Sequence record: KM657822
From: Escherichia phage vB_EcoM-VpaE1
Length of the DNA: 64,000 nucleotides
Reading direction: 5' to 3' (one strand)
Part shown: positions 3,575 through 57,223 of the stretch, piece after piece
How positions within the stretch are numbered: position 1 is the first letter of the stretch
Layout: each line of letters begins with the position of its first letter
The notes under the pieces: model-generated
The model's input: only the letters and a program-made list of their open reading frames with translations
Databases searched by the model: none
Told to the model about the DNA's origin: nothing
Program-made: the position numbers and the translations under genes

Positions 3575-3598
3575 AAGGCTGCTTCGGCGGCCTTTTTT
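3575..3598 (+). terminator. intrinsic terminator after rIIB
   Basis: GC hairpin ggctgcttcggcggcc followed by T6. Confidence 0.7.
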
Positions 3599-3659
3599 AT
3601 TTGTATTTTGTGCAGAGTGCTGTATAATTGTTTTCACGATAAACTAAACAGGAGAACCA

Positions 3660-6812: not shown

Positions 6813-7014
6813 AAAGACACGGAAAATTATCCGGTCAGCAGTATCCATTGGAAGAAATGAAGTGATTCCTTTTACAGCAAATGATGTGATAATCTACAGG
6901 AAAAAATTAGCATTCAGTTATTGCTTACGTGGCTTTATCTCCCAGCCATTGGAAGACTTTAAAAGTCGTTGTGGTAAAGGTATCATCATTCAAGAGGCAA
7001 TTATCAATGGCTGA
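6787..7014 (+). CDS. hypothetical protein
   Basis: ORF in series. Confidence 0.35.
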   Translation: MKVILARDKKTRKIIRSAVSIGRNEVIPFTANDVIIYRKKLAFSYCLRGFISQPLEDFKSRCGKGIIIQEAIING

Positions 7015-7207
7015 CTTCTGCAAAGACTGTTCTATCGAAATGTTCGGACGTGATACAGGTGACTTAAAAGGTCTCATCACTGAAGATGACTTTAAAGCTG
7101 GTTATGCAATGCCAGTAATCTGTGAAGGATGTGGGTGTATCTGGGTAGACCACGAAGGGCAACGTGTAAAACCTTCTGAAGACAAAGAATCTTGGGAGAG
7201 ATGTTAA
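7006..7207 (+). CDS. small zinc-ribbon protein
   Basis: CxxC...CxxC pattern (FCKDCS ... CEGCGC); start taken at internal ATG 7006. Confidence 0.4.
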
Positions 7208-7208
7208 G

Positions 7209-7994
7209 ATGGGTATTGTAAAAATCATCAATGGTGATATCTTTGCTGCATTTGATAAAGGTAAGTTTGACATCATTGGTCACGGTTGTAATTGTATGAA
7301 TTTAATGGGTGCAGGTATCGCTGACAAGATTTCTAAACTTTACCCAAAAGCATATGAGACCGATACAGAAGTTTACCTATATGCAGGTGGCATAGGTCAC
7401 AAACCCTGTGAAAATTTACTGGGTAATTTCTCTGTAGCACGTTTAGAACAAGGCCGTATAGCTAACCTTTACACTCAGCTTAAGACTGGTAAAGATGCCC
7501 GATACAGTGCTTTAGAGTCATCTTTGAAGCAGCTTAACAGATACTGTGAAGTCAACCAGTTGAAGAAGGTTGGTTTACCTATGATTGGTGCAGGTATCGG
7601 TGGGCTAGACCCTCAAGCCGTCACAGTTATCATTAATCAGGTGATGAAGAGTGTAGATGTGTATCTTTATGTCTACGAAGGAGAGATGTACCACAAGTTA
7701 CGCTCAGGTTGGAAGAACTACTGTGAACCAGAATACTTTGCAGGTGTAGCAGTGTTCACAGATAACGCAGTTACCCTCTTCAGACGAAGAAAAGGTAAGA
7801 TACATCAAAGTAACCCTCCGGTTGAAAAGATGTCTCTAAGTAACGCTCTAGTTACCCACCTGTCGAAGAGCAATCACAGGATTGCAGTAACATTTGGCAG
7901 TGATGCAGATGCTTACATCTATGCAAGAACTGATGAGGATATCGAGACAGTTTTCTCTTCACCAGAAGTTACCTTCTTAGACGCAAAGAACTAA
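7209..7994 (+). CDS. macrodomain protein, TARG1/OARD1 (DarG-like) type, with C-terminal extension
   Basis: GDIFAAFDKGKFDIIGHGCNCMNLMGAGIA and LPMIGAGIGGL match the recalled OARD1/TARG1 blocks GDLFAC...HCISEDCRMGAGIA and MPRIGCGL. Confidence 0.75.
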   Translation: MGIVKIINGDIFAAFDKGKFDIIGHGCNCMNLMGAGIADKISKLYPKAYETDTEVYLYAGGIGHKPCENLLGNFSVARLEQGRIANLYTQLKTGKDARYSALESSLKQLNRYCEVNQLKKVGLPMIGAGIGGLDPQAVTVIINQVMKSVDVYLYVYEGEMYHKLRSGWKNYCEPEYFAGVAVFTDNAVTLFRRRKGKIHQSNPPVEKMSLSNALVTHLSKSNHRIAVTFGSDADAYIYARTDEDIETVFSSPEVTFLDAKN

Positions 7995-8413
7995 GAAACT
8001 CCGTAGAATATTCACAATAGTCTAAGCCTTCCTTATCTGGTAAATTTTTCAGGTAAGGAGGGCTTTTTCATTTCAGATTTGTGCAGGTAGAGTTCTGTAG
8101 AGAAATCTGTAGAGAGAATTTTAAACTCCAAAGAGAAAATTCATTTTCAAACTGTGTAGGTAATCTCCAAAGAGCTTTTTCATTTTCAAAACGTGCAGAG
8201 AAAAATCAGGTCGGGCAAGAAAAATCATTTTAGAATTGTGCAGGTAGGTGGGGATGTCGCCATTTCTCACAAGGCTACCACATCTAAAAAGAAAAGTCAA
8301 CAGAAAAATTTGTAGCGGATTGAAAAATAATTCTTGATTGTAGTTCTGTTTTGTGGTAGTCGCGTGCGCCCGTTTCATTACAGTTTTTTGCAAAAATATT
8401 TTTAAAATCCCTA

Positions 8414-8442
8414 TTGACTCTCTGACTATGGTTATTTAATAT
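8414..8442 (+). promoter_or_regulatory. sigma70-like promoter
   Basis: TTGACT - 17 nt - TAATAT. Confidence 0.6.
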
Positions 8443-8503
8443 TTGCATCAACAGGGGGGCGATGACCTCCCAACTAACTAACCTTAAACTAGGAGATTCA
8501 AAA

Positions 8504-8884
8504 ATGGCTTATCGTGCACCTAAATTCATCAATAAAGACAACTTCCGCAACGCACTGGAGAAGACACTTGATGAAAAATTTAACAGCAAATTGATTGTTG
8601 TTCACGCATATAATTTTAAGTATGATATTAACGGGAACAGAATCAACCATTACACGGCAACAATGTTAGATGGCACACTTTCAAGTGAAAAAGCCATTAT
8701 CAATGCACTTGCAGGACGTGGGAAAAACCTGATAAAATGCGATAAGAGACGTTATCAGGGTGGCGCATATGGCTATGATGATGCTGTTTATCATCTTGAA
8801 AATATGGGCTATTCAGTGGAAAAAGCTGGAGTGTCTCAAATAATCGGCAGTGACGGCTATGTGACAATTTTCAAAATTAACTGA
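8504..8884 (+). CDS. hypothetical early protein
   Basis: ATG preceded by conserved taggagattc RBS cassette. Confidence 0.55.
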   Translation: MAYRAPKFINKDNFRNALEKTLDEKFNSKLIVVHAYNFKYDINGNRINHYTATMLDGTLSSEKAIINALAGRGKNLIKCDKRRYQGGAYGYDDAVYHLENMGYSVEKAGVSQIIGSDGYVTIFKIN

Positions 8885-13589: not shown

Positions 13590-15245
13590 ACGTCTATGTA
13601 ATAGCCTCTATACAACCCCTTTCCTTTCCTTTCCAGAATCTTACTAGACCTTAAAAGCAATAACTCTATAGTCTACTCTATAACCTCTTATCAAATCAAC
13701 TTAAATATAAGCCCATAACCCGAAAGGGAAGGGCAACCATTTAAACGCTCTATAAAGCCCTATAACAGCCTTATCAACCTAACTTAATGGGTTGCATTAA
13801 CTCACCCTTAAAAGCCCTTCCTAGAGCTTCTCAGAGCCTTAAAAGAATCTTATAAGGGTGTAAGCTTTACCATCTCGTTAGTTCCTTGTGAATAACTAAA
13901 AAGGGCTTGTTAGTGTCTTAAAAGTATGTTATAGGGGCTATAAAGTTACTTTGAAGTTGCTTAAAAGTTACGTAAAAGGGGCTATAAAGTTACGTAAATG
14001 CTAGCCCCCTTAACATTTTCTTAACAATTTCTTAACAATCCCTACATAGTTATGCTTTTAAGACACTTGTTAGCAACTTGTTAGCCCCTTGTTAAATCTC
14101 TGTTAAGACCACGTAAAAGCCTTGTAAGAGTCTTTGACATAGCCTTAAAAGCTCCTGTAAAGCTCTATAAAGAGCTATCTGTACAGTTGGGGTGTAACTA
14201 CTAGGAAGAGGCTTAAAAGAGCTTATAAAGAGCTATAGAGAGCTTTTAAGAGGTATGTTTAAGGAATCACTAGGGATTGGTAACAATACCAATTAAGAAA
14301 GGAAGGGAACGATAAGAAAGAGAAGTTGTGTTTGAACCAACCACTGTGACCATGTTAACAGCTTGTTAAAAAGATTAAACACTTGTTAGAAACTTGTTAA
14401 TTATCTTAACAAAATAACTCTTAAAAATTAACTTGTTAGCTCTTGTTAGTCATTTGTTAAGCCTCTGTAAAGACTATTCAGCACTTGTTAGAAAACTGTT
14501 ACAGTCTTGTTAGTTCTGTTAAGAAACTGTTAAGACCTTTGAAGAGTTGTTAAGAGCTTGAGAGAGTTGTTAAGAAATTGTTAAGGATATTTTAAAATTT
14601 TGCAAAGTACTTGTAAGGGAGCTGTTAAGGGCTACCAAGCAGATATACATCATGAGGTAGATTCTACCGAATCAACTCTACAGATATTTTTCAGTTCCTT
14701 CAAAGACCCTAAAAAATGACTTGATAGTCCTATTTTATAAAAATTTTAAAATTCTGAATAATTACCTATACAGCCTTTTAAAAATACAGGTAATAACAGG
14801 CTTATAAGATACCTTGTTAGTACCGTGTTAGACCTTGTGAGATAAGGTCTGTAAAGATATTCCTGTTAAGTTTGTTAAAACAGTCTATATAGAGGCTTAG
14901 TAATACCTAGTGAACACCTATAGAGAGTGTCATAGCTAACATAATGGGTTACTGTTAAGTAACACAGATAACCTAGAGATTAAGAGGTGTATAGGAGCTT
15001 CTAAGAAGGTGTAGAGAGATGGTTAAGGTGATTGTATAGGCTGTTAAGAAGGCTTGTTAGAGGGCTAGTTAGAAGGTTTATACAGAGGGCTATTAAGACC
15101 ACTAGATAGTTACTAAGATACTATATAGTACTATATAACTATATAGAGAGTAAGATTAAGAAGGTTGTTAAGAAGGGTAGATATTTTGTTCACATATGAT
15201 GGTGACCCAGAGGTTGGGACAACCGATAAAATTTTATAAAAATTA
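13590..15245. repeat. ORF-free region with dense same-strand YTGTTAR motif array
   Basis: No ORF of 60 aa or more in the six-frame track; about 28 copies of [CT]TGTTA[AG] all on the plus strand, often 10-11 bp apart; TATAAAG motifs also present. Confidence 0.8.
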
Positions 15246-15279
15246 AAAAGCCCCCGATTAAGGAGGCTCTTAAGATATT

Positions 15280-56893: not shown

Positions 56894-57223
56894 TTAATCT
56901 GCCAACCTTAAATTGAAATTAACACCAAATTTTTCACATACTCCCAACATATACTCAAGGGAGACGTTACCAGTGAGATGGATTATGTTGGATACACGAG
57001 CCTGAGAGATACCACAAATTTTAGCAACTTGCTCTTGAGAAAGACCTCTGGATTTAATCTCTCTCTTAAAACGATGTGCAACGAAGTCTCTCATTTCGTC
57101 TACATCCATTGGACAAATATAACTCTCCATTTCAGCCTCTCTATCAGCCTCCCAATCATCTTGTGGGGCATAAGGGTCAAAAACCTCATTCATCTTTCTT
57201 CTTCCGTTTGCGTGAAGTGTCAA
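56894..57223 (-). CDS. helix-turn-helix (XRE-like) DNA-binding protein
   Basis: LSQEQVAKICGISQARVSNI resembles an HTH_3 motif. Confidence 0.6.
   Translation of the reverse strand: MTLHANGRRKMNEVFDPYAPQDDWEADREAEMESYICPMDVDEMRDFVAHRFKREIKSRGLSQEQVAKICGISQARVSNIIHLTGNVSLEYMLGVCEKFGVNFNLRLAD

Follow-up and report, generated by a model that had tools for sequence, protein, structure and literature searches.

Iteron-like direct repeats next to the terminal small-gene cluster of Felix O1-like phages: a conserved, probably protein-binding element with a tentative role in replication

This report concerns a set of short direct repeats in Escherichia phage vB_EcoM-VpaE1, a Felixounavirus, of which we analysed 64,000 nucleotides (nt) from the sequence record KM657822; this whole stretch is called the window below, and positions are counted from its first letter. 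A gap of 510 nt free of open reading frames (ORFs), 7995-8504, holds four direct repeats on the same strand, with the core TCATTTYMRAWNYGTGYAG and with starts at 8068, 8141, 8180 and 8225. The repeats are real and non-random, they are unique in the genome and non-coding, they are not shaped like promoters and they correspond to no known or stably folded RNA. In our opinion the array is very probably a cis element bound by a sequence-specific protein. Going further, and by analogy with known systems, we tentatively propose that it could be the initiator-binding (iteron) part of the phage replication origin. That the array binds a protein, that this protein is encoded by the phage, and that the outcome is initiation of replication are three separate statements, and we infer all three.

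The repeat has two parts, TCATTT-N7-GTGCA, and is asymmetric; its four copies stand head to tail on the plus strand within 176 base pairs (bp). Copies 1 (8068-8086, TCATTTCAGATTTGTGCAG) and 3 (8180-8198, TCATTTTCAAAACGTGCAG) are preceded by T-tracts (GGGCTTTTT and GAGCTTTTT, respectively), copies 2 (8141-8159, TCATTTTCAAACTGTGTAG) and 4 (8225-8243, TCATTTTAGAATTGTGCAG) by A-tracts (GAGAAAAT and AAGAAAAA). From start to start the copies are 73, 39 and 45 nt apart. Iterons are recognized as at least three co-oriented direct repeats of ~17-22 bp at one locus, and here there are four of 19 bp. An earlier note, written from the sequence of this stretch, had reported four direct repeats near 8066, 8140, 8176 and 8226, spaced 40-70 bp, in the gap after a macrodomain gene, and both the positions and the spacing agree with ours. 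Its consensus was approximate: only copies 1 and 3 carry the 5' TTTT, which gives way to the A-tract in copies 2 and 4, and copy 3 lacks the 3' GGTA. The invariant parts are TCATTT and GTGCA, with 7 nt between them. Copy 2 reads GTGTA instead of GTGCA, in this window only; relatives keep GTGCA.

Chance does not account for these copies. A degenerate 19-mer matches 4 times in 64 kilobases (kb) where 0.23 matches are expected, which bears out the number of repeats given in the earlier note, and none of 100 shuffled sequences attains 4. A stricter 22-mer matches 3 times against 0.02 expected, with all matches inside the 176 bp. When the window is scanned with a position weight matrix (PWM) built from the array sites of 13 genomes, the four copies score 25-29 bits (copy 1, 28.9 bits) and the next best site 13.5, which is background level, the mean best score of shuffled genomes being 12.7. 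On the complete genome of phage D4 (89,439 bp) the PWM finds only four sites, of 26-30 bits. Since the array is unique in the genome, we regard it as a single genome-level cis element and not as a class of promoter or operator that is reused at early promoters. At a lone weak PWM match, 3575-3630 (11.9-13.8 bits, background level), TTTGTGCAGAG comes after the T-run of the rIIB terminator, in an apparent sigma-70 promoter ending in TATAAT; the match is probably due to chance.

A 2.5-kb query around the array matches 251 phage records at 90-94% identity, nearly all of them Felixounavirus from Escherichia, Salmonella or Shigella hosts. With the gap as query, megablast returns 223 records and blastn 287, the latter including 11 Citrobacter and 28 Erwinia phages; records of Mooglevirus and Suspvirus are also among the matches. 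In the Erwinia phages the repeat block itself, 8140-8242, is the sole part of the query that blastn can align. Our alignment comprised the intergenic regions of 13 phages in four genera: Felixounavirus (the window, FelixO1, AYO145A, Ro111lw and Si3), Suspvirus (phiSUSP1 and EP1), Mooglevirus (Michonne, ESh20 and ESh22) and, from Erwinia, Kolesnikvirus (SunLIRen, Coenus and BoyaciRG1). The order macrodomain gene, terminator, repeats, promoter, small genes is the same in all 13. Four co-oriented copies are present in every aligned region except two: Si3-type phages have a deletion of copy 2 and are left with three, and in Ro111lw copy 1 is mutated to TTATTT and falls below the search threshold. 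Copy 1 has an orthologue in every enteric genus and in the Erwinia phages. The earlier note had looked to close relatives of identical gene order as the place where the repeats might turn out to be absent; we checked this, and the repeats are kept in the aligned relatives of all four genera.

Both half-sites, TCATTT and GTGCA, reach 94-97% conservation over 50 sites (41 unique); the stretch between them is always 7 nt long, although its letters change. The distance between copies is less constant, being 75/41/45 nt in Suspvirus and Mooglevirus and 37/37/39 nt in Kolesnikvirus. Among the enteric genera, identity is 0.85-0.87 in the repeat cores, 0.61 in the spacers and 0.73 in the nucleotide sequence of the macrodomain gene; between enteric and Erwinia phages the corresponding values are 0.68-0.77, 0.39-0.41 and 0.59. 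Across the four genera, purifying selection has thus held the cores more tightly than what surrounds them. Hence the suggestion of an iteron-like protein-binding array, made before any relative was compared, is well supported: the array is present in the aligned relatives and its cores outconserve both the spacers and the neighbouring gene.

A pattern of paired sites (two sites 17-30 nt apart) recovers from IMG/VR only arrays of the Ounavirinae type and a few unrelated coding repeats in tail-fibre-like genes; a single-site pattern with 14 specified bases was swamped by chance matches over the same collection. In 185,579 species-representative bacterial and archaeal genomes the paired pattern finds 28 stretches, none of them from Enterobacterales by title, and the plasmids of PLSDB have no similarity to the array.

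Could the repeats act as something other than binding sites on DNA? They are not sigma-70 promoters, as the position downstream of GTGCA where a -10 element would be expected is not conserved. Tandem promoters on either strand were also considered and rejected: promoter hexamers can be forced onto copy 1 (8/12) and are not conserved. Nor do the repeats encode a repetitive peptide, as spacings of 39/41/37 and 45/39 nt include non-multiples of 3 that shift the frame, and no reading frame is common to the genera, the stop-free segments differing in frame and extent. An element working as RNA, such as a protein-binding repeat RNA or a small RNA, might arise by read-through of the terminator of the macrodomain gene or from the opposite strand. 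The copies are indeed co-oriented with the upstream transcription unit, and read-through transcripts would carry all the repeats because copy 1 overlaps the T-run of the terminator. Yet that terminator is strong and precedes the array, and a promoter scan finds no promoter-like site in 8066-8413 on either strand. Rfam contains no family for the gap (the best match has 27.5 bits against a gathering score of 211), and the predicted RNA folding, on either strand, is no more stable than that of shuffled sequence (z-scores +0.98, +0.54 and -0.14). Two invariant blocks at a fixed distance, without compensatory changes, are furthermore typical of a DNA-binding site. We therefore take the array to be an element of the DNA, on the grounds that a terminator precedes it and that promoter, folding, Rfam family and conserved frame are all lacking, and we rate a role as RNA as highly improbable.

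The same absence of promoter anatomy, conserved ORF, Rfam family and unusual folding, taken with what the repeats do have (two invariant blocks with a fixed 7 bp between them, asymmetry, four copies, uniqueness and constraint), is why we read the array as a row of binding sites. Lying 7 bp apart, TCATTT and GTGCA would therefore be presented in successive major grooves. The site does not, to our knowledge, fit the consensus sequences for IHF, Fis, CRP, sigma-E, sigma-54 or the MarA/Rob marbox; the marbox (GCAC...AAA) has a spacing one off from that of the repeat. We regard this comparison as a lead only.

A host candidate is DnaA. The 3' halves of the repeats could be DnaA boxes that recruit host replication or membrane-associated DnaA, and, like the boxes of oriC-type clusters, they are short and asymmetric, contain TGTG.A and recur over a few hundred bp. 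The Erwinia phages indeed have a 3' half (TGTGCATAG or CGTGCATAA) that agrees at 8 of 9 positions with the reverse complement of TTWTNCACA, the DnaA-box consensus given in bioRxiv 10.1101/866236. The corresponding 9-mers of the window (TGTGCAGGT, TGTGTAGGT, CGTGCAGAG and TGTGCAGGT), however, match at only 5-6 of 9, and this holds for all enteric genera, which have TGTGCAGGT or CGTGCAGAG there; a cluster of DnaA boxes was accordingly not found in the window. Unlike oriC-type clusters, the copies are all co-oriented and have an extra invariant TCATTT 7 bp away, a half-site that DnaA leaves unexplained. Nor does any Enterobacterales genome, by title, have a paired-site array in the scanned collection. 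The positions flanking GTGCA differ consistently between enteric phages (GTGCAGGT) and Erwinia phages (GTGCATAG), with GGT versus TAG directly 3'. The DNA-binding domain of DnaA is essentially identical in Erwinia and Escherichia, and a genus-specific change of its site would not be expected for that reason. In our view a cluster for DnaA or another host factor is scarcely probable. The difference in the GTGCA flanks rather favours a co-evolving, phage-encoded binder over a host protein shared by Enterobacterales, and on this sequence evidence a phage-encoded binder is the most likely one.

As to which phage protein this may be, we considered the C-terminal half of the macrodomain protein and dropped it: the alignment with the Erwinia homologue, at 44% amino acid identity, is confined to the N-terminal macro domain, and the C-terminal half is not conserved between the two. 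The gene at 56894-57223 on the minus strand encodes a small protein that bears the signature of an XRE/Cro-type helix-turn-helix (…GLSQEQVAKICGISQARVSNI…). The D4 record calls it a 'transcriptional regulator', and it is the sole annotated candidate for a sequence-specific DNA-binding protein in the genome.

The surroundings of the array are what lead us to consider an origin of replication. To the left lies the macrodomain gene (7209-7994, plus strand; 'phosphatase' in annotation), the identity of which is upheld by a Pfam Macro match (E=1.2e-7, residues 25-141). It closes a long plus-strand block that starts at rIIA, and it also precedes the array in FelixO1, phiSUSP1, Michonne, SunLIRen and Coenus. 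Its intrinsic terminator (8024-8065, plus strand; 17 pairs, an 8-nt loop and a T-run in a terminator scan) is annotated at the same place in the AYO145A record, and the T-run forms the 5' flank of copy 1. To the right of the array comes an A/T-rich block, AAAAGTCAASAGAAAAATTTGTAGCGGATTGAAAAATAATTCTTGA (8285-8345, plus strand), which is nearly invariant in the alignment of three enteric genera. It is followed within 8366-8413, directly upstream of the -35 element of a promoter, by the least stable 40-mer of the gap, with 80% A+T; in nearest-neighbour profiles of seven genomes an 80-88% A+T 40-mer at this -35 element ranks first or second in instability in all seven. By its sequence, this stretch could be an UP element or an unwinding region. 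The promoter itself (8414-8442, plus strand) is of the sigma-70 type, TTGACT-17-TAATAT, and is the first of the terminal small-gene cluster. Its TTGAC and TA.TATTT are invariant or nearly so across four genera, so that the promoter placed at 8414 by the earlier note is real by consensus and by conservation; that it acts early we infer.

The order is like that of an origin: direct repeats, the A/T-rich block, the 80-88% A+T stretch and the promoter, with the A/T-rich block and the 40-mer 45-190 bp downstream of the repeats and the latter coinciding with the promoter upstream region. Iteron origins are laid out in this way, with a single conserved, co-oriented array followed by A/T-rich DNA and then a promoter, and our tentative proposal is founded on this succession. 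One phage-encoded protein would recognize the asymmetric two-part sites through TCATTT and GTGCA, and four protomers would load next to each other in a single orientation. Next to them, the gp4-like primase/helicase and the DNA polymerase could enter at DNA that melts easily and is activated by transcription, namely the A/T-rich block with the strong host-type promoter (8285-8442).

The closest parallels are the origin of phage lambda with its O protein and the iteron plasmids (F with RepE, R6K with pi, pPS10 with RepA). There too, co-oriented repeats of 18-22 bp are found at a single locus, next to A/T-rich DNA and a promoter, and the sites are asymmetric and have two parts. In the complexes of RepE, pi and RepA with their iterons, a monomer places two DNA-reading domains in successive major grooves. 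The parallel has its limits. Iteron systems have a regular spacing of ~20-23 bp, in contrast to the variable 37-75 bp seen here, and their initiator gene is adjacent or overlapping, whereas none adjoins the array, which also lacks similarity to anything in PLSDB. Moreover, the array belongs to a virulent myovirus of 87 kb whose primase/helicase and polymerase are T7-like, and in which a role as origin is putative. The primary origin of T7 (phi1.1A/1.1B, then A/T-rich DNA) shares other features with the region: it is intergenic, lies a few kb from a short direct terminal repeat (DTR) at the border of the early region, combines a promoter with adjoining A/T-rich DNA, and serves a gp4-type primase/helicase. 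However, the T7 origin has no iterons and needs the phage RNA polymerase, while here repeats lie upstream of the promoter and the Felix O1-type phage has no RNA polymerase of its own (PMC3185647).

Several observations weigh against an origin, and they should be stated clearly. Among the proteins of ten flanking genes Pfam recognizes only the Macro domain, and no recognizable initiator gene (Rep, O, DnaA-like or similar) is adjacent; whole-genome annotation of a relative (Pharokka-style) offers one small helix-turn-helix 'transcriptional regulator', far from the array. The spacing of the copies is irregular and out of helical phase in each of its forms (73/39/45, 75/41/45 and 37/37/39), and classical iterons are regularly spaced, usually by about two helical turns. 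Three copies suffice in Si3-type phages. The least stable DNA is 130-190 bp away from the last repeat and is at the same time an ordinary UP-region of the promoter. GC skew falls gradually after the array without a change of sign, and neither GC nor AT skew is informative. Virulent phages with T7-like replisomes often initiate from transcripts or from recombination intermediates. In the literature on origins of Ounavirinae we found no experimental datum. Our confidence in the origin is low principally because no initiator is adjacent, the spacing is irregular, Si3 manages with three copies and GC skew tells us nothing.

An alternative is transcriptional control. A phage regulator sitting on the array could act as a roadblock, insulating the small-gene cluster from read-through out of the 30-kb plus-strand block, or it could activate or shut off the 8414 promoter at a distance. 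The array lies exactly between the terminator and the conserved promoter, and every copy is oriented along transcription. Nearer the promoter there are two degenerate repeat-like units on the plus strand, a fifth inside the A/T-rich block (8288-8315, 63% identity) and a sixth at 8366-8393 (68% identity), at about -65 to the promoter. The timing of transcription in Felix O1 is, besides, an acknowledged unknown (PMC3185647). But the promoter-proximal units are poorly conserved, and the good sites are 170-350 bp upstream of the -35 element, at a distance that varies by genus. Such sites are lacking at the many other promoters within the small-gene cluster, and a strong intrinsic terminator already separates the two units. 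In other genera a different gene comes first behind the 8414 promoter, so the array has no constant target gene. A classical operator is unlikely in view of the distance, the siteless early promoters and the changing first gene, and we find transcriptional control as a whole rather doubtful.

The position of the array in the genome suggests yet another explanation. The window opens at rIIA, the customary start of Felix O1-type records, and has a cluster of 25 tRNA genes. The physical ends lie elsewhere. Phages of the Felix O1 type have a short DTR, of 608 bp in UAB_Phi87 by Bal31 digestion and sequencing (PMC4837284) and of 613 bp in Ro111lw by PhageTerm (PMC6454146). The Ro111lw record has the exact 613-bp repeat at both ends, and its equivalent in the window is 14004-14636; the array is thus outside the terminal repeat, and since it is 5.8 kb away we ruled it out as a terminal repeat or packaging site. 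The map of D4 runs from the DTR through leftward genes (including the endolysin), tRNA genes, structural genes, and the modules for replication and nucleotide metabolism to rIIA, rIIB and on to the macrodomain gene, the array, small genes and the DTR. The small genes at this right end of D4 number ~15 and have individual host-type promoters and terminators, and the array forms the inner boundary of the cluster. From the array to the right physical end it is ~6.5 kb in the window, 7.2 kb in Ro111lw and 7.3-7.5 kb (8.4%) in D4; in Erwinia phage Hena2 the array is 7.4 kb from the end of the record. Across phages the distance counted from the mapped DTR end is 6.5-7.5 kb, or 7.5-8.4% of the genome. 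One record seems at first sight to place a terminus at the array: BoyaciRG1 (Erwinia; OR125561.1) has an exact 1232-bp redundancy of its ends, which begins in the middle of the macrodomain gene and spans the whole array. Most likely this is an uncollapsed overlap of a circular assembly and not a true terminal repeat.

This distance resembles that of T5, in which transfer of the DNA stops at 7.9%, in a conserved region of untranslated repeats (bioRxiv 10.1101/866236). By analogy, the array could be bound by a host or very early protein and halt ejection after the terminal ~8%. As in the T5 injection stop signal (Repeat Region 3 of the left terminal repeat), conserved untranslated repeats lie ~8% from a physical end and outconserve the small, pre-early-type genes that they delimit; here they are also unique in the genome, and the stretch from the array to the end contains only small genes, of host-takeover type and with host-type promoters of their own. 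The T5 value, however, counts from the end that enters first, while our distances are taken from the right physical end, and in the literature searched we found no report of two-step transfer in Felix O1-like phages. The sequences differ in kind as well. The T5 region lies within a terminal repeat of 10 kb, and its ~1.2 kb are made up of nested palindromes, inverted repeats and paired DnaA boxes, as against four simple direct repeats without palindromes or good DnaA boxes (5-6 of 9 in enteric phages) that lie 5.8 kb outside a repeat of 0.6 kb; the sequence features of the T5 signal were thus not found. For these reasons we consider a T5-like pause or boundary quite improbable. A related idea, in which the array would represent a novel type of signal for genome entry or for a boundary, with a bound protein arresting ejection or partitioning the chromosome after ~8%, appears to us very improbable. 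If an entry signal were true, the Felix O1-like myoviruses would represent a second, mechanistically different case of two-step transfer besides the T5-like siphoviruses.

The remaining features of the region can be described briefly. Between copies 1 and 2 a repeat search finds two CTGTAGAGA units on the plus strand, 12 bp apart (8095-8115), whose conservation in other genera is only partial, and it is uncertain whether they belong to the array element. They resemble CTRTWRAGA, a repeat enriched near the terminal repeat (kb 14 has 8 of its 32 matches in the window), a likeness that may link the array gap to the terminal-repeat region. In that region, at 13700-15250, there is a stretch of ~1.6 kb free of ORFs that contains the physical genome end and is dense in YTGTTAR / CTGTTAAGA repeats of 11-bp period in both orientations. 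YTGTTAR has 26 matches in one kilobase there, against at most 3 in any other kilobase, and these repeats may be signals for packaging or for replication of the ends.

Directly 3' of copy 4 the alignment shows a variable segment (8244-8284), which in the window reads GGTGGGGATGTCGCC...CACATC. Most relatives have a C-rich tract at this place (CCCCTCTCCCCCTCTTACTCCCCC; in Erwinia phages CGCCCACCCTCCCCTCTACC), and in the window, AYO145A and Ro111lw an unrelated sequence of 35 nt replaces it. Two independent assemblies break inside the C-rich tract: MN850610 (Andreotti) starts there, and a contig of IMG/VR ends there in Nextera adaptor. Just 3' of the predicted transcription start of the 8414 promoter, a hairpin of the 5' untranslated region, GGGGGG-CGATGA-CCTCCC, can be read from the sequence at 8454-8471 (plus strand). 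Relatives keep an equivalent with a different sequence in the alignment (for example GGGCAAGCAAGCCC and GGGAAACATCCC), and it looks like a stem-loop that stabilizes the 5' ends of early mRNAs. The first small gene downstream (8504-8884, plus strand) encodes 126 amino acids, beginning MAYRAPKF..., without a Pfam match. On the other side, just upstream of the macrodomain gene, 6929-7207 (plus strand) encodes a protein of ~66 amino acids with two CxxC pairs (MADFCKDC…CEGCGC), whose sequence suggests a zinc ribbon. Other genera likewise have a small gene at this place, of 201 nt in enteric and 174 nt in Erwinia phages.

In terms of novelty, the genome paper of Felix O1 lists direct repeats of at least 24 bp, not these, and states that temporal regulation is not understood (PMC3185647). 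The searchable literature on origins or iterons in Ounavirinae and Felix O1 contains nothing relevant, and the array is not described there. Judged by its sequence, it is an undescribed example of the familiar direct-repeat protein-binding arrays. There is a practical side to this, since the gap that holds the array may seem 'empty' but should not serve as a neutral insertion site in phage engineering.

Among the classic phages of diagnostics and therapy are Felix O1 and its relatives, whose replication origin, temporal control and DNA entry are undescribed. The array is the most strongly conserved non-coding element near their early region. Its simple consensus, TCATTT-N7-GTGCA, offers an experimental handle on this biology: a bait for the binder, four sites that can be mutated, and a landmark in the genome.

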